Below are positions 7,765 through 31,741 of a stretch of DNA of 32,000 nt, in pieces. Numbering within the stretch: position 1 is the first letter of the stretch; every line of letters starts with the position of its first letter. The DNA lies in assembly GCA_025839675.1 (NCBI GenBank), contig CP104013.1, positions 6,003,314 through 6,035,313 on the forward strand, written 5' to 3'. Origin of the DNA: Candidatus Lokiarchaeum ossiferum. Its GTDB lineage: Archaea; Asgardarchaeota; Lokiarchaeia; Sigyniarchaeales; Promethearchaeaceae. A model generated the notes under the pieces. It was not told where the DNA came from and made no database searches. It saw nothing but the letters and a program-made list of their open reading frames with translations. Position numbers and translations under genes: made by a program.

Positions 7765-10700
7765 TTACCCTGTATAAACTGCAACATTGTTAATATAACT
7801 TGTATCTTCATTTTCAAATAGATAAATTCGTGTGTCTATAGGATTATTCGCATCATAAAAGTAAATTTCACTTTTCATAGAATATGATGTTGCATAAGAT
7901 ATTTTTGGGCGAATATGGATACTATATCCGCTCAGATGTAGGTCTATTGTCGCACCTCCATACACTTCAGTTGTTTTCTTTATTGTATGAGAATATGTAG
8001 AAGCTGCCCCTGCAGGATACTTCCATTCAAAATTATCAATAGTAGGCTGAGATATAATGGGATTTGGTACTTCGGAAAATGGATACTCCAATGAATACGA
8101 TAATTCCGTTAATCCAACATATCCCGGCGATTCTGACTCAATAAAGGTAGTTTCTTGTATGTAATGTAGTTGATTTGCGCTTGCAAATTTAAAACCTGTT
8201 GCTTTTACTGATCCTTTATAATTTTTAATAAGGATTATATCCCCAGTAGCTTGATTTGCAGTCCATGACAATTCAGTTTCATAGTTATCTTCACTAGTGG
8301 TTCCGATATCAAGTACAACTTCAAGATAGTCTAATTCACTTCCCCATTTCTTTCCGATAGCAACTTCTAAAGATATTTTTGTGGAAATTGTTTCTGTGAT
8401 AGTCAATTTTTGCCAACTTTCTTCCCCGGAAGGTGCATAAATTCGAGAAATAAATAAAGGGATTTCCTGATCTTCTAGAATTTCAACTTCCACGTTTTCA
8501 TCACATGTATCAATTTTAACATTATCAATGTAAACAGAATACGCTGAGCTATGAGAAATACTTTTAGTTGTAATTCGTATTCCTGAAGGAATATCTGTGT
8601 TATCCTTGATATTCATTGGTCCAGCTATTAAAACAGAGTTCAAATATATTTTACATCTTTGAATATTAGTATCATGCCAATAAAATAGGAAATCGATTTG
8701 ATACATTTTTCCAACATCAATATCTGCACGATGATCCCAATTGGGTATTGCTAAACCTGATATATCCACATCAAGTCTATTTTCTCCCAAACGAATCTTC
8801 TTTTGCTCATGTCCATCCTCATCTAGAATTTCAATATAGGCATATTGATTATTCACATTTGTTTCTAAGCCAACTTCTACAGAAAATAATACTGGAGCGT
8901 TTTCAGGGATATTTTTTGATTTTTCAATTTCCACATTTCCTCCAAACAGACCATAACTTTCATCAATCAATCTTACTACTTTTCCAGGTCGGTTAGTCCA
9001 ACTTGGTGCATTAATAATAGTTGCTGCACAATCCGTATCTTCCTCAATTGTCCAACTGTTTAACGAATCTCCGTTCACATCTTTATCAAAGTGATCTCCA
9101 AAAGGATCCATCGAATCTAATGGATTAGTAAGGTAAGTTAAAATTTCTTCTCCATCTGAAAATTCATCCCCATCCGAATCCGCTTCGGTCGGGTCGGTGC
9201 CTAAGTCCACTTCTTCCCCATCTTCCAACCTATCCCCATCCGAATCATCATTCTTAGGATCGGTTTTATAACCAAAAGAAGAATAGATTTCATCCGCATC
9301 CGAAATACCATCGTCATCCCAATCAAGAGGGTTTACACCGCCAATATTCAACCCTGTGTCTTCTTCAAAACGATCCAATAATCCATCTAAATCACTATCT
9401 GTCTGTTCTACGGCGAAGTTGGCGATTTTCCAGGTTCGCCCTCCATCATAAATCCAAGCTTTAATTTCCGTAATCATGGCTAAGGATCGGATCCATCCAT
9501 ATCGGACCAGTTCACCATCCCAAGTGGTCTTCATAAATTTATTTATTGGGGAATTAGGGATTATTTCGATTTCGAGATGGTGGTAAACGTTGGGAGTATT
9601 ACTATCATAGATATCCAGTCCAGTTTTATCTAAGTATTTGGTTCCATCGAACATGCGAATCTTTCCTAAAGCGGGTTCAATTTTGAGTAAAACATACTTT
9701 CCATCAGCAAAAGCAACATGGATAATTTTGACATTATCATCACTAAATTGGAGATCACACGAGAGGTATAACATTCGATTTGGATTTTCATAGGCATTAT
9801 AGGTAAAGGAAGCTCCTGATGTTGATGGAGATTGGAGGACTGCAACATTATTAATGCCAGAACCATAATTTTCCAAACTAATACTTCCTACATCATTAAT
9901 TGGATCAAACACTGTAGGGTTATAGTATACTAACGGATTATAGCCAGCAGTGTTCGCTTCAAAATAGTCTGAATATCCATCTCCATCCGTATCGGGATTT
10001 AAAGGATCTGTGCCGATCATATCTTCATCTTGATCTACTAATCCATCTTGATCATTATCAAATTCAAGATTGCCAACATACCATATGTTTGATTTATACA
10101 TACCTAACAACATGCTGGTAAATATTTCAGTATCTGGTGAATTGATATAAAGTGATAATCCGCCGAGTAAATGGCCATTCCAATAGGTTCGCCATAATTT
10201 TTGACCGGAATTTTGTTGGACGATTTTAACAACTAAATGGTGATCCGTATTTGCCTGGAACCCACCAAATTGAGTATTAACAGAATTAACATCATGATAA
10301 ATGGTGCCATCGTGAAGTCGGATTTTGCTATATTGAGGTTCAAATTTGATTAAAAGTGCCTTATTATTTCCAAAATAAAATCGCAAGAAAGTGGTTTGTT
10401 TTACTGTAAACTTAATGTCACATTCAAATTGGAGCACATTTCGGGACATCTCCAGATTTCGTTCTTTATATTCAAAATAACTCCAAGTAGTGCCCGTTGA
10501 GGTTAATTTGGATATATCACTTTCGAGATAACTCACTGATCCAGTGCCACTAAGAGATTTGAAATCTACCTGATTATCAGCAACATAGATTGTACTCTGA
10601 GCTCGCATGGTTCGCATAGCAAAATCTCGAATATCACTAGAACTCTCTAATGTGACGGGTGTATTCAAAGCGCCGTCATCGAGATACATCATCAATTCTT

Positions 10701-11184
10701 TTGTTGTAGTGCTTGATTGAGTAACCCTCAACTGAAAAGTGTACCATTGATTGGTGTTATACTTTAGATTCTGTGCTTGGTTTTCCATAACTAAATCATC
10801 GTATGTATAAGTAGAAATCCAATCACTCTCAAAACGGATGATGAAATAATCCCCATCTTCTAGAAAAACGTATAATTGTTTTCTCAAACCATCTCCAAAT
10901 TTTAAACTACATTGGAAATAAAAGTTTTCTTCGCCAAGGCCAGTTCCAGTATAATAAAACCAGGAAACATCAGAAGTTCCAGCAGTTAAAGCATAAATCT
11001 CCGTTATATCTCCCTCATTAGCGACATTTACGATGGTTGCAGCATCGTTCGTACTATAGGTGACTTCCCAGTCTCCGTCAGCATCTCCTACTTCTGCACT
11101 GACCAAAGACAAGTCATTTTGGGGTAGGATCGGGATCATTAAGAATCCCAATGCGAGTATCAAGACAATTTTTTTATTTTTCAT
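7765..11184 (-). CDS. secreted giant protein: 4 LamG/ConA-like jelly-roll domains with thrombospondin-type-3-like Ca-binding linkers and a C-terminal beta-rich domain
   Basis: 1139 aa with signal peptide MKNKKIVLILALGFLMIPILP. Four ~170-190-aa domains share a layout (..F.CD(I/L)KF.., ..(I/L)(I/L)(K/R)(F/I)E(P/S).., a final strand such as IYVADNQVDF or WYVGNLEFD). Asp-rich linkers DNDQDGLVDQDEDMIGTDPLNPDTDGDGYSD (~9934..10062) and DSDLDGL...DDDGISDADE...DSDGDRLEDGEE...DSDGDEFSDGEE (~9100..9410). No C-terminal anchor. Confidence 0.9.
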   Translation of the reverse strand: MKNKKIVLILALGFLMIPILPQNDLSLVSAEVGDADGDWEVTYSTNDAATIVNVANEGDITEIYALTAGTSDVSWFYYTGTGLGEENFYFQCSLKFGDGLRKQLYVFLEDGDYFIIRFESDWISTYTYDDLVMENQAQNLKYNTNQWYTFQLRVTQSSTTTKELMMYLDDGALNTPVTLESSSDIRDFAMRTMRAQSTIYVADNQVDFKSLSGTGSVSYLESDISKLTSTGTTWSYFEYKERNLEMSRNVLQFECDIKFTVKQTTFLRFYFGNNKALLIKFEPQYSKIRLHDGTIYHDVNSVNTQFGGFQANTDHHLVVKIVQQNSGQKLWRTYWNGHLLGGLSLYINSPDTEIFTSMLLGMYKSNIWYVGNLEFDNDQDGLVDQDEDMIGTDPLNPDTDGDGYSDYFEANTAGYNPLVYYNPTVFDPINDVGSISLENYGSGINNVAVLQSPSTSGASFTYNAYENPNRMLYLSCDLQFSDDNVKIIHVAFADGKYVLLKIEPALGKIRMFDGTKYLDKTGLDIYDSNTPNVYHHLEIEIIPNSPINKFMKTTWDGELVRYGWIRSLAMITEIKAWIYDGGRTWKIANFAVEQTDSDLDGLLDRFEEDTGLNIGGVNPLDWDDDGISDADEIYSSFGYKTDPKNDDSDGDRLEDGEEVDLGTDPTEADSDGDEFSDGEEILTYLTNPLDSMDPFGDHFDKDVNGDSLNSWTIEEDTDCAATIINAPSWTNRPGKVVRLIDESYGLFGGNVEIEKSKNIPENAPVLFSVEVGLETNVNNQYAYIEILDEDGHEQKKIRLGENRLDVDISGLAIPNWDHRADIDVGKMYQIDFLFYWHDTNIQRCKIYLNSVLIAGPMNIKDNTDIPSGIRITTKSISHSSAYSVYIDNVKIDTCDENVEVEILEDQEIPLFISRIYAPSGEESWQKLTITETISTKISLEVAIGKKWGSELDYLEVVLDIGTTSEDNYETELSWTANQATGDIILIKNYKGSVKATGFKFASANQLHYIQETTFIESESPGYVGLTELSYSLEYPFSEVPNPIISQPTIDNFEWKYPAGAASTYSHTIKKTTEVYGGATIDLHLSGYSIHIRPKISYATSYSMKSEIYFYDANNPIDTRIYLFENEDTSYINNVAVYTG

Positions 11185-11583: not shown

Positions 11584-14500
11584 ATGAAATCAAGTAAAAA
11601 AAATACCTATTTAGGCATTCTGACGCTTATACTCCTTGGTTTTTCTGGTGCATTTTCACTACTATCACCAAGGGATCAAAACAATTTGAGAGCACCCTCT
11701 GTTGCTGACAATTCTCCCCTTTTATATGTTAATTTTGAAAATACTCTCACCAGTTCCACGGGGGAGACTGGAATCACAAATGGAAATTGGGAATATAACA
11801 CAACCGATGCAATTTTGGATTCTTATTCTGTCTATTTACCTGGAGAAAACAAAAATCACATCAAATGGGATTATGGAAGTGCCTTATCTGAGGGGACTAT
11901 GGAATGCTATTTCCATCCGACCTCCTTAGGGGATATTCCTAGCGCATTTTACATCATGCAGGCAGGAGAATATTTTGACTCCTATATTGGGCTCTATCAT
12001 CGACAATCTGGAGAATTATTCGCTCAATTTGTTGAAGATGGACCAATAATTCATACTTTGAAATCTAGCATTAATATTACTGCGGATCAAACCTATCACT
12101 TTGCTTTAACTTGGGGCGCACGGGGGGTTGAATTATGGATGAACGGTTTTCTCGTAGCTTCAGATCCAGATCTCACCAATGGATTGGATAGTGCAACTCG
12201 ATACTATGGTATTGGGAATGTACCTATGGGTTCTTCCACAAATTCAGGAATTGGGTTCTGGGATGAGTTTCAAGTAAGTGATTTTCAGAAAGATTCCTTT
12301 GTTTCAACAACCGATGTGTTAGGTGATAAACTTCCTGCACCCACTTTGAATTCCATTCCATCTCCCGATTCTGATGGAAACGTTTCCCTATCTTGGAATA
12401 GTGTTTCTGGAGCAGATCTGTATCACGTTTTTCGGTCAAATCAATCTATCTCTGAAATTAATGGGACTCAAACTTTAATCAATACTACCGATCAATTGAT
12501 TTGCGAGGATATCGAGTTGGAAGAGAAAACCTATTATTATGCCGTTGTGGCTCAAAATACCAGTGGGTTTTCGAATACATCTAATTGTGAATCCGTAGTT
12601 ATTACTTATCCTCCAGATTTAGTTGATGCCAATACTGTATTATATTGTGGGTTTGAAAATACCTTAGCTAGCTATTCTGAACATACTGCCATTACAAATG
12701 GGGGGTGGAGCTATGAAGAAATTAGTCCTCTGGTGGAAACATCGTCAGTTTCATTACTAGGAGAAAATAAGAATCATGTCAAATGGGATTATGGAAGTGC
12801 TCTTAGCGAAGGAACTATTGAATGTTTTTTCCGTTCGACAAATCTTGAGTCCTCTACCGGCGCAAAATATATTTTACAAGGTGGAGATTTGTTTGATGGG
12901 TCGTTTGGAGTATATTACTATAAAAATGGAATTCTACGCGCTCAACATGTAGACGGTGGAACAATTTATACTTTAGAATCTTCGGTAAATATCACATCAA
13001 ATCAAACCTATCATATCGCCTATTCCTGGGGATCCCGGGGCATTGAGCTATGGTTGAATAATGAGATCGTAGCCTCAAATAATACAATTCAAATGGGATT
13101 AGAAAGCTTTACTCGTTATTATGGGGTAGGAAATACTCCTATGGGTTCTTCTACCTTTTCTGGTTTAGGTTTTTGGGATGAATTTCGATTAAGTGACATT
13201 CAACGGGATTCTTTTACTCATCTTGATGGGATAATTGATGAAAAACCTGGGACACCCTTATTGAACCCAATTGAATCTCCTGATTCCGATGGAAATATTT
13301 CTTTATCTTGGAATTCTGTCATCGGAGCAGATACTTATTTAGTGTACCGATCGACCCAACCAATTTCTGAAATTAATGGGACTCAAACTTTAATCAATAC
13401 TACCGAGGAGTTGACTTGTGAAGATCTCAATTTGGGTGAAAACACTTATTATTACGTCGTTGTGGCTCAGAACGCAAGTGGATTTTCCAACATGTCCAAT
13501 TGCGAGTCTGTAATAATATCGTTATCTTCCGGTTTTGAGGATGAACATACTTTGTTGTTTTGCGAATTTGAGAATTCTCTCGCAAGTTCAACGGGTGAAA
13601 GTGGAATCACTAATGGAAATTGGGACTACAATACAATTAATGCGTTAGTAGATTCCACTTCGCTTTATTTACCAGGTGAAATCAGAAATCATATTAAATG
13701 GGATTACGGAAGTGCCTTATCTGAAGGAACAATGGAATGTTATTTCCGTCCAACCACACTTGGAGATATTCCAAGTGCATTTCACATCATGCAAGCGGGA
13801 GAGTATTATGATTCCTATATTGGGCTTTATCATCGTCAATCCGGTGAACTTTTTGCCCAATTTATTGAAGGGGGATCGATTATACACAGTTTGAAATCCA
13901 GTAAGAATATTTCTGCGAATCAAACATATCATTTTGCGTTAACATGGGGTTCACGGGGGGCGGAATTATGGTTGAATGGTCAAATTACTGCATCAGATCC
14001 GACGATTACGAATGGATTATATAGTACAACTCGATACTACGGTATTGGAAATGTACCTATGGGTTCTAATACAAATTCAGGTATTGGATTTTGGGATAAC
14101 TTCCGGCTCAGTGACATTCAACGGGATTCCTTTACTTATATATCGGATGTTATTGGTGAAAAACCATCTAATCCTATGTTGAATTCTATTCCATCTCCTG
14201 ATTCCGATGGAAATATTTCTCTATCTTGGAATAGTGTTTCTGGAGCCGATCAATACCTAGTGTATCGATCTCCTCAATATATTTCTGAAATAAATGGGAC
14301 TCAAACTTTAATCGATATGACCAATCAGTTGACTTGTGAAGACCTCAATTTAGATGAGGGACTTTATTATTATGCTATTGTTGCGCAAAATGCAAGTGGT
14401 GTATCTAATTCATCAAATTGTGAGTTGGTTGTGGTTGTTCTTCCTCCAGATTTAGTGGATGAACATACGTTATTATATTGTGGTTTTGAAAATACTTTAA

Positions 14501-15921
14501 TGAGTTATTCTGGTCATTCCGCAATAACTAATGGAGGGTGGAGCTATGAAGAAAACAATCCGCTGGTAGAATTATCTTCAGTTTCATTACCTGGAGAAAA
14601 CAGAAATCACATAAAATGGGATTATGGAAGTGCCTTATCTGAGGGAACAATGGAATGCTATTTCCGTCCAACCACACTTGGAGATATTCCAAGTGCATTT
14701 TATATTATGCAAGCTGGGGAGTATTATGATTCCTATATTGGGCTTTACCATCGTCAATCCGGTGATTTATTTGCCCAATTTGTTGAAGGGGGATCGATTA
14801 TACACAGTTTGAAATCCAGTGAGAATATTTCTGCGAATCAAACATATCATTTTGCGTTAACATGGGGATCACGGGGGGTGGAATTATGGTTGAATGGTCA
14901 AATCGTCGCTTCCGATAATACACTAAATGATGGGCTTTATAGCACAACCAGATACTATGGTATAGGAAATCTCCCAATGGGTTCTAATACAAATTCGGGT
15001 ATTGGATTTTGGGATAACTTCCGGCTTAGTGACATTCAACGGGATTCTTTTGGGGATATTGCTAAAATTGTCGGTGAAAAACCTTCTTCCCCTACTTTAA
15101 ACTCTGTAGAATCACCCGATACTGATGGAAACATCACACTTTCTTGGAATTCTCTTAAAGAAGTTGATTCTTATAATGTTTATTCATATTCTTCATGGTT
15201 TGATTCAGTAAACGAATCAATCGACATGAAGGTTTCAACTAATTTAACTGAATATACTGAGAACAATCTTCTAAATGGAACATATTATTATGCGGTTTCT
15301 GCCTGGAATTCTAGTGGTAGATCATTGCTCTCCAATTGTATCAAAATTGAAATTGCAATTCCATATATTCCACCCGTCGAACCTGAGTGGACTAATGGAA
15401 CTTGGCAAGATGTTGGTATAGGGGTGAGTACATTCATATGTACTGATGAAAATTTAAATATATGGATGGTCATCAAAATCGGGAGTGATATTACAACTGA
15501 AATTCGCTTAACTTACTATCAGACCAATCCTCTTGTTGGTACGATACCTGAAAACGTCTCATTGGAACATTTTTATCAAGTGGAAGTGCTAAATACCTCT
15601 TCTATTAGTTATTTATCCGCAAGTTTTTATTTTGGGGATCCAAAATACTCAGAAGAAGATTTATCCACAATGTGCATGTATCAATTTATGGATTCGGAAT
15701 GGAAAGAACCTACTCTACTTCAATCAAAGTATGAGAACAATATTTTTATGACAGATATATCTGCAAATGCCTATTTTGCCTTAGGAAATGATCTAAATCC
15801 TGAACTCCCAACTACTTCATCACCATTTAAAATCCCTGGCTATGATGGGTTCTATTTTGCAGCAAGTGTGTTTATTTCATTTTATATACTCCTAAGGAGA
15901 AGAGGTATAATAAAAAAGTAA
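11584..15921 (+). CDS. giant surface protein: 4 x (LamG_3-like lectin domain + FN3-like domain), C-terminal domain, C-terminal TM anchor
   Basis: 1445 aa with N-terminal signal/anchor YLGILTLILLGFSGAFSLL. Four ~306-aa modules. The LamG-like part ends in G(I/L)GFWD(E/N)F(R/Q)(L/V)SD(I/F)Q(R/K)DSF. The FN3-like part reads SPDSDGN(I/V)SLSWNSV.GAD.Y.V(Y/F)RS...YYY.VVAQN.SG. The tail is IPGYDGFYFAASVFISFYILLRRRGIIKK. Confidence 0.95.
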   Translation: MKSSKKNTYLGILTLILLGFSGAFSLLSPRDQNNLRAPSVADNSPLLYVNFENTLTSSTGETGITNGNWEYNTTDAILDSYSVYLPGENKNHIKWDYGSALSEGTMECYFHPTSLGDIPSAFYIMQAGEYFDSYIGLYHRQSGELFAQFVEDGPIIHTLKSSINITADQTYHFALTWGARGVELWMNGFLVASDPDLTNGLDSATRYYGIGNVPMGSSTNSGIGFWDEFQVSDFQKDSFVSTTDVLGDKLPAPTLNSIPSPDSDGNVSLSWNSVSGADLYHVFRSNQSISEINGTQTLINTTDQLICEDIELEEKTYYYAVVAQNTSGFSNTSNCESVVITYPPDLVDANTVLYCGFENTLASYSEHTAITNGGWSYEEISPLVETSSVSLLGENKNHVKWDYGSALSEGTIECFFRSTNLESSTGAKYILQGGDLFDGSFGVYYYKNGILRAQHVDGGTIYTLESSVNITSNQTYHIAYSWGSRGIELWLNNEIVASNNTIQMGLESFTRYYGVGNTPMGSSTFSGLGFWDEFRLSDIQRDSFTHLDGIIDEKPGTPLLNPIESPDSDGNISLSWNSVIGADTYLVYRSTQPISEINGTQTLINTTEELTCEDLNLGENTYYYVVVAQNASGFSNMSNCESVIISLSSGFEDEHTLLFCEFENSLASSTGESGITNGNWDYNTINALVDSTSLYLPGEIRNHIKWDYGSALSEGTMECYFRPTTLGDIPSAFHIMQAGEYYDSYIGLYHRQSGELFAQFIEGGSIIHSLKSSKNISANQTYHFALTWGSRGAELWLNGQITASDPTITNGLYSTTRYYGIGNVPMGSNTNSGIGFWDNFRLSDIQRDSFTYISDVIGEKPSNPMLNSIPSPDSDGNISLSWNSVSGADQYLVYRSPQYISEINGTQTLIDMTNQLTCEDLNLDEGLYYYAIVAQNASGVSNSSNCELVVVVLPPDLVDEHTLLYCGFENTLMSYSGHSAITNGGWSYEENNPLVELSSVSLPGENRNHIKWDYGSALSEGTMECYFRPTTLGDIPSAFYIMQAGEYYDSYIGLYHRQSGDLFAQFVEGGSIIHSLKSSENISANQTYHFALTWGSRGVELWLNGQIVASDNTLNDGLYSTTRYYGIGNLPMGSNTNSGIGFWDNFRLSDIQRDSFGDIAKIVGEKPSSPTLNSVESPDTDGNITLSWNSLKEVDSYNVYSYSSWFDSVNESIDMKVSTNLTEYTENNLLNGTYYYAVSAWNSSGRSLLSNCIKIEIAIPYIPPVEPEWTNGTWQDVGIGVSTFICTDENLNIWMVIKIGSDITTEIRLTYYQTNPLVGTIPENVSLEHFYQVEVLNTSSISYLSASFYFGDPKYSEEDLSTMCMYQFMDSEWKEPTLLQSKYENNIFMTDISANAYFALGNDLNPELPTTSSPFKIPGYDGFYFAASVFISFYILLRRRGIIKK
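11719..15360 (+). repeat. 4 tandem ~918-bp (306-codon) coding modules
   Basis: Module starts (L(L/V)Y/F-C/V-x-FEN) are at 11719, 12637, 13552 and 14470. Modules 3 and 4 are ~94% identical over ~300 nt (13683.. vs 14601..) by hand alignment. A 40-nt identical stretch (tctgaaattaatgggactcaaactttaatcaatactaccga) is shared by modules 1 and 2. Confidence 0.9.
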
Positions 15922-21527: not shown

Positions 21528-21746
21528 TTAATAATTTTCGATTGCCAATTCAATGTCGCCTTTGGAGATCTTCTTACGTTTGCTATGTTTAGCAAATACT
21601 AAAGCAGATGCAGTAAGCTTTTTGGATCGGTCTTCTAAGTAGTTTAATAAGAGTTCCACCGCGTCTCGACTCACGATTTCAGCGCCTGCGCTTTTCATGA
21701 GACTTCGGAGTGGGCTCCATGCAAAAATTCTTCGTTTTTTGGCCAT
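21528..21746 (-). CDS. archaeal histone (histone fold) with short basic N-terminal extension
   Basis: 72 aa. PLRSLMKSAGAEIVSRDAVELLLNYLEDRSKKLTASALVFAKHSKRKKISKGDIELAIENY aligns by eye with HMfB (PIGRIIKDAGAERVSDDARITLAKILEE...KLARHAGRKTIKAEDIELAV). It is preceded by MAKKRRIFAWS. Confidence 0.9.
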   Translation of the reverse strand: MAKKRRIFAWSPLRSLMKSAGAEIVSRDAVELLLNYLEDRSKKLTASALVFAKHSKRKKISKGDIELAIENY

Positions 21747-21816: not shown

Positions 21817-22035
21817 TTATAAATAATCAATTGCTAATTGCATATCCCCTTGGGAAATCTTCTTGCGTTTAGCGTGTTTGGCGAATTTTTGAGCCATAAT
21901 GGTCAATTTTTTAGATCGATCTTCTAAATAATACAATAATGCTTCAACTGCTTCTCGGCTGACAATCTCGGCACCGGCTTTTTTCATTAAAGCTCGAAGT
22001 GGAGACCAAGCAAATGTTCTTCTTTTTTTAGCCAT
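21817..22035 (-). CDS. archaeal histone paralog with short basic N-terminal extension
   Basis: Start chosen at ATG 22035 (MAKKRRTFAWSPL...) because it matches the paralog's N-terminus exactly. The ORF-track start at 22101 is a non-ATG codon adding 22 unrelated residues. ATG 22044 (MKKMAKK..) is an alternative. 55 of 72 residues are identical to the 21528..21746 product by hand count. Confidence 0.9.
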   Translation of the reverse strand: MAKKRRTFAWSPLRALMKKAGAEIVSREAVEALLYYLEDRSKKLTIMAQKFAKHAKRKKISQGDMQLAIDYL

Positions 22036-22486
22036 TTTTTTCATACTCCGCGTATAAATAAATGAGTAGCTGTCCCCATCTGTGAGATTTTTGTCGACCA
22101 AAAGTCCTTAAATGAGTCCAAACCAAATATATAATAGTATTTAATCTATTTAAAGGTAATGCAGTTTTCGGGTAAATAGCGAGTCCGAATGGATTGGATC
22201 AGTGATATTATCGACAAAAATACTCAATTAGAGTGTAGAAAATGAACTCATTTCCAAGCCCGTAGGATTGAAAAGAAGGCTAAATTTTGGAGATCGATCT
22301 GAGAAATGTAAGTAACACCTTTCTGTGAGAATAATTATGATCAAAATATGTTCAATGTTTTCATATATTACTTGAATTCATGAATGGTTGGTTATTTTTA
22401 TTATATTATTGTTTTACCTCTAGATTTCTCACTATCTAAAAATCTATTAAAATTAATAAAAGAAAAAATTGCCTATATCTCGCTTT

Positions 22487-23461
22487 TCATTTTATAGTTA
22501 TAATAACATTTCCTTTTTTATGACCTTTCTCCACATAACGGTGTGCTTCGGCCATTTGTTCTAATGAATAAACCCTATCAATCGCCGCTTTTAGTTTCCC
22601 CGCTTCAATAAGTCCTTTGAGGAAAAGAAGATCTTTTGCTTTTTCAGCGGTGGGTCTTAATCCTGCTGCTGCAAATTGTGCTTTTTTGTTACCAAATTTG
22701 CTCGTCCATAATGCTTGAAAAAGGATTGGTAGAGTTGGGACTGTGGTTAGGTAGATTCCACTTTCGTTTAATGCTCTTTTACATTTGGAAAAAGAACTTT
22801 TTGCAACAGTGTCAAAAATTATATCATAGGTGTGACCAGTTTTGGTAAAATCTTCTTCTGTGTAGTCTATTACGTTATCTGCCCCAAGGGATGTCACTAG
22901 TTCTAAATTAGTGGTGCTGCACACTCCAGTCACTTCAGCTCCATAATACTTGGCAAGCTGAATTGCTGCGGTACCCACACTTCCAGATGCTCCATTGATG
23001 AGAACCTTTTGACCACTTTGAATTTCTCCCTTATCTCGAAGGAAAGGTAATGCAGTTAAAGCTCCATCTACTATCGCTGCTGCTTCTCCATAATTCATAT
23101 TAATGGGCTTGAGCGCGATCTGCCCGTCTTCAGGTAAGCAAATATACTCTGCATGAGCCCCTAAATTATTGATTGATGCTCCAAAGACTTGATCACCTAC
23201 TTTAAATAAAGTCACATCTTTTCCAATGGCTTCTATCTCTCCCGCGAGGACATCTCCCGGAATCCGGTGTTTTGGTTTCAATAATCCCGTAAATAGGCGG
23301 CTGATGGCAGGTTTTCCCAATCGAAATGTCGGATCCGTGGAATTGACTGCTGCTCCGTAAATTTTGATTAATAGTTCGTTATCTTTAGGCGTCGGTTTTT
23401 CAACTTCTTTGAAATTGAGAACTTCTGGAGGGCCGTATTTGGTGCATATTATCGCTTTCAT
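22487..23461 (-). CDS. medium-chain dehydrogenase/reductase, NADPH:quinone-oxidoreductase-like
   Basis: Likely start is [15 protein letters not shown] (ATG 23461); the ORF extends to 23506. Motifs GDQVFG and Rossmann [21 protein letters not shown], with the C-terminal [10 protein letters not shown] typical of the QOR subgroup. Confidence 0.9.
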
Positions 23462-23590
23462 TTGTATGTTCATCCTATAAAATTTGTTCATATTTACATT
23501 GTTCAATATAATAAAAAAAAGTGCATTTTCGAAATTTAAAATTTGATTCTTTATTTTGATTTTTTACTTCAAGTAAGTATTCGTCGTAAA

Positions 23591-24517
23591 TTAGCTGGTG
23601 TGCTCAATCGTAATGACAACATTTCCTCTTTTATGGCCTTTGTCAACATAGGCATGGGCTTTACTCGTTTGATCCAATGAATACTTTTTATCAATAAATG
23701 GTGTGATTTTTCTTGCTTCTATAAGTTCTTTGAGAAAAAGCAAATCTTTTGTCAGTTCTTTAGTCATAGAAGTGATAGAAAGGTAAGATCCTGTGCTTTT
23801 AAGAGTTTTTTTGCATAATGAAGCGGAAATTTTTCCAACAGCTTCAAATACGATATCATAAATTGGTCCGTCTTTTGTAAAATCTTCTTTTGTGTAATCT
23901 ATCACTTTATCGGCACCAAGAAGTTTAACCATGTCCAAATTTCCAGTACTACAAACCCCTGTGACTTCTGCTCCAAAATATTTAGCAAGCTGAACTGCAT
24001 AAGATCCAACGCTTCCAGATGCTCCATATATTAGCACTTTTTGACCCTTTTGGATGTTTGCATTCTTTAGTAGATATAGCGCTGTCATTCCACCCACAGG
24101 GCTAGCTGCAGCTTCTTCAAAAGTTATATTATTCGGTTTTAGTGCAACAACTCCCTGCTTCCATTGTTCTGGCAAACATACATATTCGGCATAAGAACCA
24201 AATTTCAACCCAGTCGTGGTTCCAAAAATTTGATCTCCTATCTTAAACAATTTAACATCTTTGCCTACTGCCTCTACTTCCCCAGCTAATTCGGTACCCA
24301 ATAGAGTTCGTCTCGGCTTAAAGAATCCAAAAATAATTCTGGCAGGTAACCAAAACAAAAGAGGAAAATCGGAACTTCGAAGTCTCACATCGCCAGAGGT
24401 AACTGTGGCTGCATGAACTTTCACTAAAATTTCATTATCCTTAGGTATTGGTTTATTTACATCTTTTAATTTGAGAACATCTGGAGTTCCATATTTTTCA
24501 TATATTATCGCTTTCAT
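23591..24517 (-). CDS. medium-chain dehydrogenase/reductase paralog (quinone-oxidoreductase-like)
   Basis: Likely start is [15 protein letters not shown] (ATG 24517); in-frame ATGs also at 24523 and 24535. Motifs [27 protein letters not shown] and [10 protein letters not shown]. Collinear with the neighbouring paralog. Confidence 0.9.
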
Positions 24518-24888
24518 TTTCATCACAATTTTCATAAGTGGGACATTAACAATAACTATTTAACATTCACCTATATTATAATACTATATTTATTTAGGTA
24601 TTGTAGATTAATAAACTTTCGGTAATCTAAGAGATTGATGTGTTTTCGTTAAAAGAAATTAACTTTTTCCTATTGATTTTTAGGAATCTTAAAAAGATAA
24701 AATCAAAACAAAATAAAAAAATACCTCATGAATTCCATCTTGAAGCAAATACTTAATTTTATCATCGAAATCATACAAATAATACTTCGATTTCAAAAAA
24801 AACCAAACTCGATTCAAAACCTAAATTATCAAATATGAGATATGATGTATTATTAAAATACTGACTATTTTGTAAGGAGTTTGCTTCA

Positions 24889-26122: not shown

Positions 26123-27505
26123 TTAAGTTACTTGCTCATAAAATGCATCGTAAATGTCAAGAAATGTTGAAATGTGCTCTTCATTGCCATGAAGAATGCC
26201 AATCAGATTCTCTTCTTGACCAGCAAGTAATCTTTGTAAATTTTCTATATTTATAATATCGGATTGGACCGTTGCAAGTGGATATGTTCCTGTTTTTTGA
26301 TACATTCTTCCCCTTGCCAAGCGTAGGTAAAATCCTTCATATCCTTTGAGATAAAATTGAATCACAAAGTCTTCTGATTCCATAAATAGCCCGATATCTT
26401 CGGAAGAATTACATAGTGTGATAAAGTGTTTAATTTTTTGACTTATATCTGAGGGTAATTGCTGAAGAGGGCTATCTGGATCTTGTTGGCTTATCGTTTT
26501 TTGCTCTGAATTCCGAATTATTTGTGTTTGATGGGCCAATTCTTGAATTTTTGAAAGGGGGGTGGGTGCTGGTCGTTTTTTAGGGATTTCGTTTTCGATT
26601 GAAGGGTCATCTTGTAAAGGATCTGGAAGTAAAGAAATATCTATTTTTTCTTCATGGGGGCCATCTTTTTCATTAACAGTACCATTCTTTTCTAATTTTT
26701 CCTTCCTCGTTGCATCGGAAGAATTAATATCTTCAATTTTTAATAATTCAAATTGTTCATTCCACTTGGGAATTTTTTTCTTATATTCTCTAAATCCCGC
26801 TTTTCCACACGATGGGCAAATGGATAGATTTCGTTTTTCCGCCTTTACTAAGCATTGAGGGCAATAAATTTGTTTACACTTTTGATTGGAACAAATTAAA
26901 AGGATATTTGGCTCCTTATGGCAAGAAAAACATTTCTTTCCTATTGATCGGGAAAGAAACATAATATTATTGTCATAATTTGTCAAGAGCATGTCTGTAC
27001 GCTTATTTAACCACTTCTTTTCATTACAAAATGGACATCTCTTAAGATATTTTTTTGGCTTCTTAGGTTCTGTAGCGCAATCCAAACAAATTAATGCTTT
27101 ACATTTTTCACACTTGATATGAAATCCATGATGATGTCCGCTAAATATAAATTCTTCATCGGATCCCAAGAGTTTTCCACAAGTATGGCAATGTAAATTG
27201 ACTTCTTTCTCACAGTTTTCGCACACATAGTGATCTACTACATATGAGCGCTTTTCTGTGGATTGGTAGGCCGGACCATACGTTTGGACAAATGAACTTA
27301 AGCTTTTCCCATTGTATCTTTTTGTATGATAGCATGATTTGCAAAATTCATTTCCACAACTTTCACAAGTAAGTTTTGATTTAGGATCAACTTTATCTAT
27401 AGTGATGCCAACAAATTCAGCGATGAATTTTCGTGTAAATCGATTGAAATCTTTAATATCGGCTTTTGTTAAATAAGTACCGCAAATTAGACAAGTTTTT
27501 CCCAT
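26123..27505 (-). CDS. multi-zinc-ribbon / RING-IBR-like cysteine-rich protein with unassigned C-terminal domain
   Basis: 460 aa. The first ~240 aa contain 11 CxxC pairs (CLIC, CESC, CKSC, CENC, CHTC, CEKC, CLDC, CPFC, CFSC, CPQC, CPSC) plus CSNQKC and a His cluster (HHHGFH). Then a low-complexity P/E/Q linker and a ~110-aa globular C-terminal domain. Confidence 0.8.
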   Translation of the reverse strand: MGKTCLICGTYLTKADIKDFNRFTRKFIAEFVGITIDKVDPKSKLTCESCGNEFCKSCYHTKRYNGKSLSSFVQTYGPAYQSTEKRSYVVDHYVCENCEKEVNLHCHTCGKLLGSDEEFIFSGHHHGFHIKCEKCKALICLDCATEPKKPKKYLKRCPFCNEKKWLNKRTDMLLTNYDNNIMFLSRSIGKKCFSCHKEPNILLICSNQKCKQIYCPQCLVKAEKRNLSICPSCGKAGFREYKKKIPKWNEQFELLKIEDINSSDATRKEKLEKNGTVNEKDGPHEEKIDISLLPDPLQDDPSIENEIPKKRPAPTPLSKIQELAHQTQIIRNSEQKTISQQDPDSPLQQLPSDISQKIKHFITLCNSSEDIGLFMESEDFVIQFYLKGYEGFYLRLARGRMYQKTGTYPLATVQSDIINIENLQRLLAGQEENLIGILHGNEEHISTFLDIYDAFYEQVT

Positions 27506-27722
27506 TGTGACTCTCTTCTATTATTAAATATTATGTATGTCAGTTGCATATAAGCATACCGATTATTTTAGTCAAAATGAGAATTGCCTATAAATTTTCA
27601 AGGGGCCAATCCTTTACTTTGCAAAAATGATTAATCAAATTAATAATCAGCAGAAGAAGAATTTGTTTCTATCAAGATTGACAAAAAAGAGAATGGCTTG
27701 CATAGCCTCATTCTTTCTAGAT

Positions 27723-28373
27723 TTATTTATCGTAAAGTTGATAGAGCGTAGTGCGTCTTACTAATTCTGCAAAAAGGGGGTAAATATTATATTTTTTATC
27801 CCACAAGGCAATAGTTTCGTATACTATTGGATTCCAAATATTCAATTTATGATCTGGCGGATAAATGAGGTTGTTTTCATCCAGTATTTGATAAATTTCT
27901 TCTTTTCGCATAGTATTGGGGAGATCTTGTTTGTTGGCCATTATTAAAAGTGGAATTTTACTGATAAGGTCTTCTCCACATATATTTTTCAATTCCTTAA
28001 GAGAATTAATGTTGCGATCTCGGTTACTTCGTTGAGAATCAAATACTAAGATAATACCATCCGTTCCATAAAATATCTTCTTTCGGAGTGGAAAAAAGCG
28101 ATCTTGGCCTGCTACTGTATAGATGTGGTAAAAAAGATTCTTTTCGCTTTTGGATTGAAATACCCCTCTGTCAAAATAAAGAGTTGACCCATTTTCCATG
28201 GCTATTTTTTTGAAATCATTTATGGGTGTTAAATTTGATTCAGAATCCTCTTCTTTTGCCATTTTATGTAGGGTATCAACCGCAGTGGTTTTCCCAGACC
28301 CCGCGCATCCCCACAAGAGTAACTTTATGTAGACTTTTCCATCCTCATTTACATTAACCAAAGGTTTATTCAC
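27723..28373 (-). CDS. MglA-like small GTPase
   Basis: 216 aa with a GTG start. P-loop LLLWGCAGSGKTT. The G3 motif is the MglA-type YTVAGQDRF (Thr in place of the usual Asp; M. xanthus MglA has YTVPGQ). TDGIILVFDSQ and G4 ANKQDLPN align by eye along the whole of MglA. Confidence 0.9.
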   Translation of the reverse strand: MNKPLVNVNEDGKVYIKLLLWGCAGSGKTTAVDTLHKMAKEEDSESNLTPINDFKKIAMENGSTLYFDRGVFQSKSEKNLFYHIYTVAGQDRFFPLRKKIFYGTDGIILVFDSQRSNRDRNINSLKELKNICGEDLISKIPLLIMANKQDLPNTMRKEEIYQILDENNLIYPPDHKLNIWNPIVYETIALWDKKYNIYPLFAELVRRTTLYQLYDK

Positions 28374-28598
28374 ATCATTTCTGTATCGTGTTGTATAAAA
28401 GTAGTAGATCCTTAAACTATTTAAGCTATATTAATAACCGATACCATAAATTTGAAAAAATATCTCTATGCGAAATAACCTTAACAAAATTGGAAAATTT
28501 TATTAAATACAAATCAAGACCAATCTATCAAGTATGTAAGGTAATTTAATCCTCTTTGCAAATTATTTTATTTTGATCTGTATTTTCGCTTCCTTTCT

Positions 28599-29111
28599 CT
28601 ACCACATTATATCAAGAACGATATCGGCTAAAGTACTTTTAAATTTACGCAAAGATTCCATTTTCATAATTGAAGTTTCATAGGATAGAATTTTTCGATG
28701 GCGAATCTGAGACAATTGAAAAAAATCTCTTGCTTTTTTAAGATTTTGTTGAGATTCTAAGAGATCCATTTTATGGAAACAGAATATAAAAGGAACATTT
28801 CGAGTTAAAGGATTATCTAAAACTTTTTCAAATTCTCGTTTTGCTTCTTCAAATCGTGGCGAATCTAAAACGTCTAACACAAAAATATTAATCTTTGCTC
28901 GTTTGATGCCTTTTATCCAAACATCACGAAAGGAAACTTGTCCAGGAGCATCCCATATTTGGAAAACAATATTTTTTGTAATCAATTTAGTAATATTGAA
29001 GGATAAAGTAGGTTTTGTACCTTGAATCAATTTATCTTCTCTAATTGAAGAAATTAGTGCTGTCTTTCCTGCTTGATCAATTCCGAAAACAAAAATTTTA
29101 TGTTGCTCCAT
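28599..29111 (-). CDS. Arf/Arl/Sar-like small GTPase
   Basis: 170 aa. KIFVFGIDQAGKTALI corresponds to Arf1 RILMVGLDAAGKTTIL. PTLSFNITKLITKNIVFQIWDAPGQVSFRDVW corresponds to [32 protein letters not shown]. The G4 motif is degenerate (HKMD). LSQIRHRK corresponds to LHSLRHRN. Confidence 0.9.
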   Translation of the reverse strand: MEQHKIFVFGIDQAGKTALISSIREDKLIQGTKPTLSFNITKLITKNIVFQIWDAPGQVSFRDVWIKGIKRAKINIFVLDVLDSPRFEEAKREFEKVLDNPLTRNVPFIFCFHKMDLLESQQNLKKARDFFQLSQIRHRKILSYETSIMKMESLRKFKSTLADIVLDIMW

Positions 29112-29180
29112 TTTTTCTCACTCTTGAGTAATTAATGGGTCAATCATAGTTGAATTTGATGTTTCTCAGTTCCCAGTTAT

Positions 29181-29205
29181 AAAAAAAATGAAAATTGAAA
29201 AAAAA
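29181..29205 (-). terminator. two T8 runs (minus strand) downstream of the Kelch gene
   Basis: The minus strand reads ..cgtaTTTTTTTTcaattttcaTTTTTTTTataac, beginning 17 nt after the stop at 29222. This suggests the Kelch and Arf-like genes are separate transcription units. Confidence 0.4.
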
Positions 29206-29221
29206 TACGTAAAAAGTGCTT

Positions 29222-30328
29222 TTATCTCATCCGTTTCTTATATATAATGAGAGTAATTGCCACAAAAGTAACAGAAACCCCTATAGATATTAAAAAGAAT
29301 GGCAAGTTTACCTTCTTTACTTCTCGCCACAATTTCAAGTTTGTATTATAATACCATTGATCTCCAAACGGCTGGTTCATATCTTCTGGATTTCCTCCTC
29401 CAAATAGAAATATTTTATTAGAACTTTCTATGTAAACCATTTGATGAACCATCCTCATTTTCGGTTTGTTAAGGCGCTTCAATTCTGACCATGATTCAGT
29501 TCTACAATTGAATATCCAAGTAATCTCTTCTAAAAATGGATAACTCCCACTTCCACTAAAAAATACAATTTTATCATGCTTTTGATCAAAACACGCACCC
29601 ATCCAATATCGCTTGCTGGGACCTTTTTCATCAATAGGTATTTCCTGCCAGCTATTATTATTGGGGTTTAATATCCAAATGTCACAATAATCACTACTAT
29701 ATGGTCTTCCTCCTACTAAATACACCCGATCTAAATTAACACTGTACATTAAAGATGCACCATATCTACCCGAAGGTTTTGCGCCCGTTTGATTTAGTTG
29801 AGTCCATGAATCCGTAGAACAATTAAAACTCCATAAGTCTCCGAGCTTGGTATCAATTTGAAATCCCCCAAATAGCAATATCTGAAATCTTTTTTCATCA
29901 AATGTAAACCCTGCATCAGTACGGCTTGGTGGTGAACTTGATAGATTTAATTTTCTCCATAGATTGCTTTCCACAGAAAATTCCCACATTGCTGTTCCTG
30001 AATACAAAATCACTCGATTATTTGTAGAATCATATGCCATTCCATGATGGGAAGTAGGTCCGGGGTTAATATCTCCAGAAATTTCTTGCCACTTGTTTGT
30101 TTTACAATCAAATATCCATGTATCATCCAATACACCGTTACTAGATTGGTTTTCTCTTCCTCCAAATAGAAAGATTTGATCTGACTGCGAAAGATAGACC
30201 ATTGAATGAGCAGTTCTTGGACAAGGCAATGAATTCTGTTCTGCATTTGCAAAATTGATCTGAAAGTGCGGGAATGTTGATATTAAAATGAGTAAACTAA
30301 TTTCAATGCATATTTTATTCGACTTCAT
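29222..30328 (-). CDS. six-bladed Kelch-repeat beta-propeller, signal peptide plus C-terminal TM anchor
   Basis: 368 aa with signal peptide MKSNKICIEISLLILISTFPHFQINFANA. Six repeats of P.....H.MVY.....IFLFGG......DDTW.F.....W. C-terminal helix FFLISIGVSVTFVAITLIIY followed by KKRMR. Confidence 0.9.
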   Translation of the reverse strand: MKSNKICIEISLLILISTFPHFQINFANAEQNSLPCPRTAHSMVYLSQSDQIFLFGGRENQSSNGVLDDTWIFDCKTNKWQEISGDINPGPTSHHGMAYDSTNNRVILYSGTAMWEFSVESNLWRKLNLSSSPPSRTDAGFTFDEKRFQILLFGGFQIDTKLGDLWSFNCSTDSWTQLNQTGAKPSGRYGASLMYSVNLDRVYLVGGRPYSSDYCDIWILNPNNNSWQEIPIDEKGPSKRYWMGACFDQKHDKIVFFSGSGSYPFLEEITWIFNCRTESWSELKRLNKPKMRMVHQMVYIESSNKIFLFGGGNPEDMNQPFGDQWYYNTNLKLWREVKKVNLPFFLISIGVSVTFVAITLIIYKKRMR

Positions 30329-30616
30329 AATCTATAAAATCATATCATGTTTATAAGAAATATTTGCTTTCATCTTCGTTTCATTCCAAAAAAGATGAAC
30401 AATTTTTATATTTGGAAAAAAAACAAATTATTCTTATTTTTATAATCAAAAATGGATGAGTTAATGAACCTTTTCTTAAGGAAAGATGATTTTATTTAGA
30501 ATTGAATCGTTCTCGGATGTCTCTTGTTATTCATTTGTCATGAACTTGTACTTTAATTTCATTAAGGATTTTTAACAGAATAGAAGAAAAAAGAATGACA
30601 TATATTTGAATCTAGT

Positions 30617-31741
30617 TTATTCTTGTCGTCTCCATTCTTCGCCACATTCACCGCAGATAAACTTTTTTCCATAAATCAATGGGTAATCCATTATAATATT
30701 GGTTCGATCCTCTACCTCGCGCATTAAGTTCGGTTTAATGTTACCGCATTTTGGACATTGATTTCTTCCTTCCCCAGTTTGAATTTTAATAGCATTTTTC
30801 TCGGCTTCTTCTTTGGCTTTACGATCGGCTTCTTCTTTAGCTTTGCGATCGGCTTCTTCTTTAGCTTTACGATCGGCTTCTTCTTTGGCTTTACGATCGG
30901 CTTCTTCTTTGGCTTTACGATCGGCTTCTTCTTTAGCTTTACGATCGGCTTCTTCTTTAGCTTTACGATCGGCTTCTTCTTTGGCTTTACGATCGGCTTC
31001 TTCTTTAGCTTTACGATCTGCTTCTTCTTTAGCTTTACGATCGGCTTCTTCTTTGGCTTTACGATCGGCTTCTTCTTTGGCTTTACGATCGGCTTCTTCT
31101 TTGGCTTTACGATCGGCTTCTTCTTTAGCTTTACGATCGGCTTCTTCTTTAGCTTTACGATCGGCTTCTTCTTTGGCTTTACGATCGGCTTCTTCTTTAG
31201 CTTTACGATCTGCTTCTTCTTTAGCTTTACGATCGGCTTCTTCTTTGGCTTTACGATCGGCTTCTTCTTTGGCTTTACGATCGGCTTCTTCTTTAGCTTT
31301 ACGATCGGCTTCTTCTTTGGCTTTACGATCGGCTTCTTCTTTAGCTTTACGATCGGCTTCTTCTTTGGCTTTACGATCGGCTTCTTCTTTAGCTTTACGA
31401 TCGGCTTCTTCTTTGGCTTTACGATCCGCTTCTTCAAAATGGGGTTGACAATCGGAAATCATCTTTTCTGCGTATATTATTCCATCATTCCATTTCTGCC
31501 TAAGACAAATCTGTTTAGATCTTCTGAATAAATCTGCAGCCAATTTCCATTTTTGCTGACTATAGGCCATTTTTCCCTTTTCAACAATCATAAAATTAAT
31601 TTTTCCCATTAACTCGGCGAATTCTTTGTTCGCATTTTCGATATTAGTCCTAAATTGGTGTAATTCAGGGAGTTCCATTTCTGGCGAATAATTTAATTGT
31701 TTTAAATAAAGGTTGAAAATTTCTTTGATCGGACTTTCCAT
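30617..31741 (-). CDS. protein with N-terminal helical domain, (EEADRKAK)x26 charged repeat and C-terminal zinc ribbon
   Basis: 374 aa made of a 102-aa N-terminal domain, 208 aa of perfect octad repeat, and a 64-aa C-terminus with CPKCGN-x29-CGECG. This frame is chosen because it alone connects non-repetitive ORF sequence on both sides of the repeat. Confidence 0.85.
   Translation of the reverse strand: MESPIKEIFNLYLKQLNYSPEMELPELHQFRTNIENANKEFAELMGKINFMIVEKGKMAYSQQKWKLAADLFRRSKQICLRQKWNDGIIYAEKMISDCQPHFEEADRKAKEEADRKAKEEADRKAKEEADRKAKEEADRKAKEEADRKAKEEADRKAKEEADRKAKEEADRKAKEEADRKAKEEADRKAKEEADRKAKEEADRKAKEEADRKAKEEADRKAKEEADRKAKEEADRKAKEEADRKAKEEADRKAKEEADRKAKEEADRKAKEEADRKAKEEADRKAKEEADRKAKEEADRKAKEEADRKAKEEAEKNAIKIQTGEGRNQCPKCGNIKPNLMREVEDRTNIIMDYPLIYGKKFICGECGEEWRRQE
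30812..31435 (-). repeat. 24-bp tandem repeat x 26 (624 bp), coding
   Basis: The unit on the + strand is tttRgctttacgatcggcttcttc. The variants are R = g or a, one acg>gcg, two ggc>tgc and one ggc>cgc. A 192-bp (8-unit) higher-order duplication is marked by gatctg at 31015 and 31207. Confidence 0.98.

Follow-up and report, generated by a model that had tools for sequence, protein, structure and literature searches.

Can five genes in a row, two of them for different small GTPases, be read as one functional module? The question is raised by a stretch of 32,000 nucleotides (contig CP104013.1, positions 6,003,314 to 6,035,313), here called the window, from the chromosome (6,035,313 bp) of Candidatus Lokiarchaeum ossiferum strain B-35. 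In it, five consecutive minus-strand genes encode a 374 amino acid (aa) protein with a long predicted single alpha-helix (SAH) and a zinc ribbon, a Kelch propeller protein, an Arf-like GTPase, an MglA-like GTPase and a 460-aa protein that combines zinc fingers with an SCP2-like domain (Table 1). An earlier note, made from the sequence of the window, had proposed that they form a GTPase-controlled membrane or cytoskeleton module. The analysis presented here indicates that the five genes are a real lineage-specific neighbourhood of Lokiarchaeum and its near relatives, not one five-gene module, and that any GTPase module would be at most a lineage-specific trio, weakly supported, consisting of the SAH protein, the MglA-like GTPase and the zinc-finger/SCP2 protein.

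Five genes and their conservation in relatives

The five open reading frames (ORFs) lie one after the other on the same strand, as described in the earlier note, separated by gaps of 288, 110, 225 and 217 bp counted from the 374-aa gene. These gaps contain no Rfam family, no tRNA and only ORFs of at most 53 aa, which agrees with the claim that nothing lies between the genes. Comparison with a second L. ossiferum assembly and two more distant relatives reveals purifying selection on all five and on a small downstream membrane-protein gene (ratio of non-synonymous to synonymous substitutions, Ka/Ks, 0.03-0.34). The five ORFs are real genes, and their anatomy as described below is held with high confidence. 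Hydrophobic segments were found in the Kelch protein and in none of the other four. The domain identities proposed previously also held up, namely the SAH/zinc-ribbon protein, the membrane-anchored extracytoplasmic Kelch propeller, the Arf-like and MglA-like GTPases and the 24 cysteines of the multi-zinc protein. A defence system was considered and rejected (0 of 6 proteins match PADLOC), and a literature look-up by locus tag found no publication on these genes.

The neighbourhood was then compared among relatives of increasing divergence. CP163304 (L020), with 95.5% nucleotide identity, carries all five genes and is colinear with window positions 31908-25629. Metagenome contigs L016/L017, at synonymous divergences (Ks) of 0.8-2.1, also keep all five genes in order, with protein identities of 92% for the SAH protein C-terminus, 64% for Kelch, 84% for the Arf-like GTPase, 93% for the MglA-like GTPase and 89% for the zinc-finger/SCP2 protein. 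The most diverged lineage is represented by a 3.2-kb contig, L002, for which Ks is saturated. It shows the order SAH protein, GTPase, zinc-finger/SCP2 protein, with identities of 70-80% (SAH protein C-terminus), 74% and 64%, and has no Kelch or Arf-like gene, nor any remnant of either in its 376-bp spacer.

Hence, in every genome found to carry this GTPase paralogue (n = 4: the window, CP163304, L016/L017 and L002) the SAH, MglA-like and zinc-finger/SCP2 genes are adjacent, with order and strand kept. Since the trio persists in L002 without the Kelch and Arf-like genes, a rearrangement inside the cluster left it together. The Kelch and Arf-like genes form a separable two-gene segment, inserted here or lost in the relative. 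The proposal of a five-gene module controlled by GTPases is thus partly supported by synteny for the trio and fails for the Kelch and Arf-like genes, which are gone from the cluster in L002.

Table 1. Features of the five-gene cluster, listed in the direction of transcription with window positions.
Feature	Positions	Strand	Description or basis
374-aa protein	30617-31741	minus	About 27 EEADRKAK repeats between an N-terminal domain (about 100 aa) and a C-terminal CxxC...CxxC zinc ribbon
Tandem DNA repeat, 24 bp x 26.5 copies	30801-31435	minus	Tandem Repeats Finder (TRF), 96% matches; encodes the predicted ER/K helix
Kelch beta-propeller protein, 368 aa	29222-30328	minus	Pfam Kelch families, E 4e-52
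T-rich stretch, two T8 runs	29181-29218	minus	Directly after the Kelch stop codon
Arf-like GTPase NEF87_005117, 170 aa	28599-29111	minus	Pfam Arf, E 2.4e-29
Promoter-like block, resembling B recognition element (BRE)/TATA, 35 bp	28391-28425	minus	Upstream of the MglA-like gene; alignment across three lineages
MglA-like GTPase NEF87_005116, 216 aa	27723-28373	minus	Best PDB match MglA
Promoter-like block GATTGGCCCCTTGAAAATTTATAGG, 25 bp	27587-27611	minus	Upstream of the 460-aa gene
460-aa protein NEF87_005115	26123-27505	minus	Three tandem eight-Cys modules, linker, C-terminal SCP2-like domain
Zinc-finger region, aa 1-245 of the 460-aa protein	26771-27505	minus	12 Cys pairs
SCP2-like domain, aa 351-460 of the 460-aa protein	26126-26455	minus	AlphaFold2 (AF2) fold and sequence profile

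The MglA-like GTPase

The best Pfam family of the 216-aa GTPase is Arf (2.9e-18). Among solved structures, MglA is its best match over the full length (6hjh/6h17/5ymx; 6.5e-15 over residues 14-169), and in the same PDB search the Arf matches span only residues 75-165. Its G3 motif in switch II, TVAGQ (T86, Q90), is of the MglA type, and the two key positions are well conserved in the family, with Thr in 117 and Gln in 116 of 120 members. With MglA of the MglA/MglB polarity switch in Myxococcus xanthus and Thermus thermophilus (Wuichet & Sogaard-Andersen 2014, PMC4316618) it shares the Thr-for-Asp exchange in G3 (TVAGQ versus TVPGQ), the catalytic Gln, the switch I Thr and the TLxFD strand. It differs in being archaeal and in the arginine finger: MglA group 1 is defined by TVPGQ in G3 plus an intrinsic arginine finger, R53 in M. 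xanthus MglA (PMC4316618), whereas the residue aligned with R53 here is Ser63, and Ser is also found in 111 of the 120 relatives.

Concerning the regulator, coupling to mglB is found for 390 of 449 small MglA genes (PMC4316618). The earlier note had recognised no MglB/Roadblock regulator near this GTPase. In agreement, no match to Roadblock, LC7 or longin was obtained at E<=0.001 on any window ORF tested, including three upstream and at least four downstream of the gene, the mglB criterion spanning four genes on either side and the fourth upstream gene lying beyond the window edge. The loci of the conserved paralogue described below are likewise without a Roadblock gene. With no intrinsic arginine finger and no Roadblock gene within reach, a non-canonical regulator would therefore be required.

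The GTPase has 667 relatives, nearly all of about 230 aa and mostly from Promethearchaeota. A neighbor-joining tree places the window protein in an exclusive clade with its L002 orthologue (P0004). In L. ossiferum the conserved paralogue, NEF87_002828, shares 62-63% identity with the window protein and about 80% with its own orthologues, and sits between the seryl-tRNA synthetase (SerRS) gene and the genes for rpl15e and RNase P subunits, a context that recurs in other Lokiarchaeia. In L009 (8001-8693), L007, L008 and L010, the gene for the GTPase of about 230 aa is always flanked by SerRS on one side and by rpl15e, RNA_binding, Rpp30 and Rpp14 on the other, and in L007 and L008 tandem copies of 216 and 231 aa are present. 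That the parent family adjoins ribosomal and RNase P genes is another difference from MglA, and such a housekeeping context is unexpected for a 'polarity' GTPase. The conserved C-terminal tail of the family, ending in '...VPDL', is missing from the window protein and its L002 orthologue, which therefore represent a derived, lineage-restricted paralogue. The exclusive clade and the loss of the tail would fit a new role for the 216-aa form. A scan of genome contigs with this GTPase returned only a 33%-identical paralogue, located among unrelated genes.

The zinc-finger/SCP2 protein

The 460-aa protein contains 24 Cys arranged as 12 pairs, all within residues 5-233, plus one extra Cys at 365. Of the 24, 23 are invariant across five homologues. 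The pairs follow the pattern CxxC..CxxC-x4-CxxC..CxxC, eight Cys occurring three times, and would imply about six Zn sites. In this eight-Cys ligand order the modules resemble the binuclear cross-brace fingers (RING, RBR/IBR, PHD, FYVE and B-box), and three of them in a row recall the RING1-IBR-RING2 layout; the basic RRHHCR motif of FYVE domains, by reading of the sequence, is absent. Matches of the zinc region to Pfam and PDB are all sub-threshold: IBR_1 at 0.0016 (18.7 bits against a cut-off of 27 bits, its best Pfam score), FYVE at 0.007, the CHD4 PHD finger at 0.035 and the RNF4 RING at 0.09, with all PDB profile matches at E>=0.035. UniRef names the protein 'RING-type domain-containing'. 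Because the AF2 model of this region is poor (predicted local distance difference test, pLDDT, 64.8) and yields no significant Foldseek match, a RING, RBR or FYVE identity is a lead only. The whole architecture matches no Pfam family.

The zinc modules are joined to the C-terminal domain by a charged linker with many Pro and polar residues. Of this domain, the best AF2 model has a pLDDT of 86.6, the other four being poor (38-54). All Foldseek matches of the best model in the PDB at E<=0.001 are SCP2 domains, with template modelling (TM) scores of 0.54-0.67. The top match is AF1534 (3bn8) of Archaeoglobus fulgidus (E 2e-6, 25% identity), and others are UbiJ-SCP2 and the SCP2 domains of alkylsulfatases. 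Weaker fold matches are to the C-terminal domain of Eis-type acetyltransferases. Independently, the family profile of the domain matches AF_1534 by sequence (3cnu, E 1.7e-4; 3bn8, E 1.1e-3), while the Pfam SCP2 models do not score on the protein. The agreement of fold and profile matches argues that the C-terminal domain is SCP2-like, as far as the model allows, and not a Roadblock, longin, GTPase-activating protein (GAP) or guanine nucleotide exchange factor (GEF) fold, which the earlier note had suggested looking for there. No Roadblock or longin appeared among the 50 fold matches listed, and a Roadblock-, longin- or MglB-like domain was rejected. Hence, the zinc part of the earlier description of this protein stands, and its SCP2-like domain had been overlooked. 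Compared with the known SCP2 domains (AF1534, UbiJ-SCP2 and the alkylsulfatase C-terminal domain), these 110 residues have the same predicted fold, fused here to three zinc-finger modules.

The family is small. A full HMMER scan of 1.84 billion cluster representatives retrieved only about seven members, a word-indexed search with the family profile three proteins only, and two metagenome scans with alignments of the family found nothing. The gene evolves with a Ka/Ks of 0.05-0.28. Its halves also occur apart, as a 249-aa protein with the zinc-finger half only (P0125, L018 10001-10750) and as a stand-alone SCP2-like protein of 122 aa (P0128); the two halves can therefore exist separately. From these sequences we define a putative uncharacterised Lokiarchaeial family of three eight-Cys modules plus an AF1534-type SCP2 domain.

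The ER/K-helix protein

The 374-aa protein contains 26 exact EEADRKAK units, with 73% charged residues and 25% Ala, no hydrophobic segment and no hydrophobic core positions. An acidic-to-basic i/i+4 pattern runs throughout the repeat region, which by inference is a predicted ER/K-type single alpha-helix of about 32 nm. Such helices are said to act as lever extensions in myosin VI and X and as linkers in the Kelch-motif family, in work by Sivaramakrishnan, Suveges and their colleagues. Like those spacers, the EEADRKAK unit places acidic and basic residues four apart and has no hydrophobic heptad. Here it is encoded by a near-perfect 24-bp repeat, in copy numbers that vary between strains, and joins an orphan domain to a zinc ribbon. 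For the N-terminal domain no relative was found in Pfam or by sequence in the PDB, and the terminal ribbon, CPKC...CGEC, has only sub-threshold Pfam matches.

The repeat number differs between strains, giving a protein of 390 aa in CP163304 and 374 aa in the window, and the gene has a Ka/Ks of 0.10 against this second strain. Short-read (Logan) contigs, including L001, break inside the 24-bp array, and the exact 374-aa protein is absent from a collection of 15 billion proteins. The repeat number in the assembly may therefore be unreliable, or truly variable.

The Arf-like GTPase and the Kelch protein

The 170-aa GTPase scores 102.5 bits on the Arf family PF00025 (cut-off 22.3). Its closest solved relatives are Arl8 (5e-18) and the Asgard Arf-related structures 8oun (8e-18) and 8oum; since Arl8 and ArfR structures score equally, they give no preference between the ArfL and ArfR groups. 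Query residue 2 aligns with residue 21 of Arl8 and residue 14 of 8oun, and there are in-frame stop codons upstream of the start. Nothing precedes the G domain, so that the protein is without an N-terminal amphipathic helix. In ArfR this helix couples the nucleotide state to membrane binding (bioRxiv 10.1101/2024.02.28.582541; PMC11914678), so that the window protein differs from ArfR/AArf in lacking the element that defines the membrane switch. Compared with the Arf signature (switch I PTxGFN, G3 WDxGGQ, G4 NKxD) it has PTLSFN in switch I, WDAPGQ in G3 (Pro for Gly) and HKMD in G4 (His for Asn), with the Trp residues retained, and these motifs are identical in L016. In L016 the two GTPases have longer gene calls (184 and 230 aa); extensions of this kind were rejected for the window because of its in-frame stop codons.

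In the Kelch protein only residues 6-24 and 339-365 are hydrophobic segments. They indicate that it starts with a signal-like segment, exposes its propeller outside the cell and is anchored in the membrane near its C-terminus, with a tail of about six residues in the cytosol. The protein evolves much faster than its neighbours, being 62-64% identical in L016 against 84-93% for the neighbouring proteins. The junctions of the Kelch-Arf segment have no flanking direct or inverted repeats, which leaves a mobile-element origin unsupported, and aligning them gave no further information. When the two L. ossiferum assemblies are compared, window positions 28200-29600 are 98-100% identical and their flanks 89-97%, and the Arf-like gene shows four non-synonymous and zero synonymous differences; this pattern suggests a recent recombination tract.

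These observations bear on the version of the earlier note, a single membrane or cytoskeleton module of all five proteins under GTPase control. As that version would expect, the window, CP163304 and L016/L017 each have the five genes colinear on one strand. It is disfavoured because the Kelch and Arf-like genes are dispensable to the cluster, as their absence from L002 indicates, because the propeller lies across the membrane, facing the GTPases with only some six cytosolic residues while neither GTPase has a hydrophobic segment, and because Kelch is fast-evolving. Comparable genes have promoter-like elements of their own, and two T8 runs separate the Kelch gene from the Arf-like gene. An adjacent GTPase pair is, moreover, expected by chance. 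Small GTPases make up about 2% of the genes of strain MK-D1, assuming about 3,900 genes by our own estimate; at this density, one or two adjacent pairs would be expected in each genome by chance, and a neighbouring pair of different small GTPases is not unusual. The count used is 74 small GTPase genes (PMC10933270). Taken together, we regard a five-gene module as very unlikely. The accompanying claim that all the domain types are eukaryotic-signature or polarity-associated went too far, since both Kelch repeats and zinc ribbons occur ubiquitously.

Coupling or common descent of the trio

A narrower reading is that the SAH protein, the MglA-like GTPase and the zinc-finger/SCP2 protein are functionally coupled, and this is the one that we tentatively prefer. 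It draws on an adjacency that was kept past synonymous saturation and through a rearrangement in the middle of the cluster, on the purifying selection acting on all the genes, on a paralogue with a clade of its own and a lost tail, and on the need of this GTPase for some other regulator. Mechanistically, the MglA-like paralogue would act as the nucleotide switch, its GTP form engaging the zinc-finger/SCP2 protein at the membrane. The SCP2 domain, which gives this neighbour a plausible link to membrane lipid, would supply lipid binding or lipid handling; the ER/K-helix protein could serve as a rigid spacer or tether, and GTP hydrolysis would need an external GAP. A more specific and unlikely form is an undescribed Asgard system in which an MglA-type switch devoid of Arg finger and Roadblock works with a triple zinc-finger/SCP2 protein and an ER/K tether of adjustable length, so that, for example, a membrane lipid might be positioned or transferred at a set distance from a site bound by the zinc ribbon, with a neighbour acting as GAP or effector.

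Several observations weigh against coupling. To begin with transcription, all three lineages retain the promoter-like block before the MglA-like gene, no matter whether its upstream neighbour is the Arf-like or the SAH gene, and the block before the 460-aa gene is nearly identical in L016, with several changes in L002. As the MglA-like and zinc-finger/SCP2 genes have their own conserved promoter-like blocks, they do not form an operon. Of the five stop codons, all but that of the Arf-like gene are followed by a T-rich tract; the one after Kelch, where the earlier note had already pointed to T8 runs, resembles in its sequence an archaeal oligo-T terminator. The genes thus look individually transcribed, and the description of the cluster as separate transcription units rather than an operon is borne out for the genes that can be compared. 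A sigma-70 promoter and terminator scan gave counts not above those of shuffled sequence, the sigma-70 model being inapplicable to archaea.

The phylogenetic depth of the synteny is a further point. The informative arrangement, in which the trio occurs by itself, comes from one diverged lineage, L002, on a short contig, and adjacency at >=64% identity can be due to descent alone. Small GTPase genes are dense in these genomes. Furthermore, the remote homologues of the zinc-finger/SCP2 protein (25-39% identity; L011-L015 and L018) have no adjacent GTPase or SAH gene, and the GTPase genes found 4-6 kb away from the homologues in L012 and L018, both long distant loci, are unrelated ones. Other partners are found instead, a histone gene directly upstream on the same strand in L012-L014 and L015, and a convergent DUF8156 gene downstream in L011-L015.

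The simplest alternative is therefore a neighbourhood by descent, in which a GTPase duplicate landed between unrelated lineage-specific genes and none of the five is coupled to another. We consider it a serious possibility, almost as likely as the coupled trio. In its favour, conserved promoter-like blocks are separate and gaps measure 110-288 bp, synteny is confined to relatives with at least 64% protein identity, distant homologues of the zinc-finger/SCP2 protein show no linkage to GTPases, the GTPase family is prone to duplication (as in the tandem copies of L007 and L008), the base rate of GTPase genes is high and other GTPases of Promethearchaeota also lie among unrelated genes. It accounts less well for a trio that outlasted the gain or loss of two genes in its middle while synonymous sites became saturated between the window and L002, and for a paralogue that is never away from the zinc-finger/SCP2 gene in the four genomes carrying it.

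The partners of the remote homologues also suggest that the 460-aa protein might act independently of the GTPases, as a RING/PHD-type protein, for example a ligase for a ubiquitin-like modifier or a histone-tail reader, whose older partners would be the histone and DUF8156. The DUF8156 adjacency is conserved more widely than the GTPase adjacency of this gene: DUF8156 (75-99 aa; e.g. L012 6065-6292) lies immediately downstream of every remote homologue on a long-enough contig. The histone genes directly upstream (L012-type and L015), the weak RING, PHD and IBR similarities with the RING-type label in UniRef, and two histone genes about 4 kb downstream of the cluster in the window would all be in line with this alternative. 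Yet the zinc-finger matches are all below family thresholds, the AF2 model is of low quality, a chromatin protein would not be expected to have an SCP2 lipid-binding domain and no DUF8156 homologue is present in the window. We judge this alternative improbable, and retain the coupled trio as the tentative preference. In L018 a version with the N-terminal half only lies among rubrerythrin genes.

Other features of the window

The two tandem histone-fold genes (21528-21746 and 21817-22101, minus) encode proteins of about 72 aa that both start with MAKKRR(I/T)FAWSPLR, a 94-aa histone ORF with a TTG start being probably over-extended. Between them and the cluster lie tandem paralogous genes for zinc-type alcohol dehydrogenase/quinone oxidoreductase (22487-23506 and 23591-24535, minus). 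In CP163304 a 3.6-kb insertion (L020 6329-9970) is located at window position ~25629/25630, between genes for membrane proteins of 98 and 233 aa, and contains a 170-aa ORF, a DUF7347 gene and an ATP-binding cassette (ABC) transporter ATPase and permease. Further away, two large divergent genes encode products that are probably surface proteins, one of 1139 aa with a bacterial TSP3 repeat (7765-11184, minus) and one of 1445 aa with four Laminin_G_3/ConA-like domains (11584-15921, plus), and a leucine-rich repeat (LRR) protein is encoded at 5402-6868.

Relation to the Asgard GTPase repertoire

Both GTPases of the window belong to the known expansion of the Ras superfamily in Lokiarchaeia, for which the groups ArfL, ArfR, RasL, RagGtr and MglA have been described in Asgard archaea (Klinger 2016; Vargova et al. 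bioRxiv 10.1101/2024.02.28.582541; PMC10933270; PMC11914678). Single-domain forms of both the MglA-like and the Arf-like kind have been listed before, for MK-D1 and further genomes (Tran et al. 2024, PMC10933270; Vargova et al.), and the two GTPases are new members of catalogued groups. A gene-neighbourhood analysis of these genes was not found in the Asgard GTPase literature cited here.

Next to nothing is known of the regulators and effectors with which Asgard small GTPases work, as has been stated for the regulators of the Arf-like proteins (PMC11914678). In this respect the present analysis cuts the candidate set from five genes to three, and characterises the GTPase among them as a derived paralogue of a conserved gene that has rpl15e and RNase P genes as neighbours. 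Should the three proteins not interact, the locus is an ordinary neighbourhood in a GTPase-rich genome. If they do, the zinc-finger/SCP2 family, together with a possible Roadblock-free pairing, would add a new variant to the GTPase-effector theme; and since L. ossiferum is among the few cultured Asgard archaea, the conserved pair of a GTPase and its neighbour is a testable lead.

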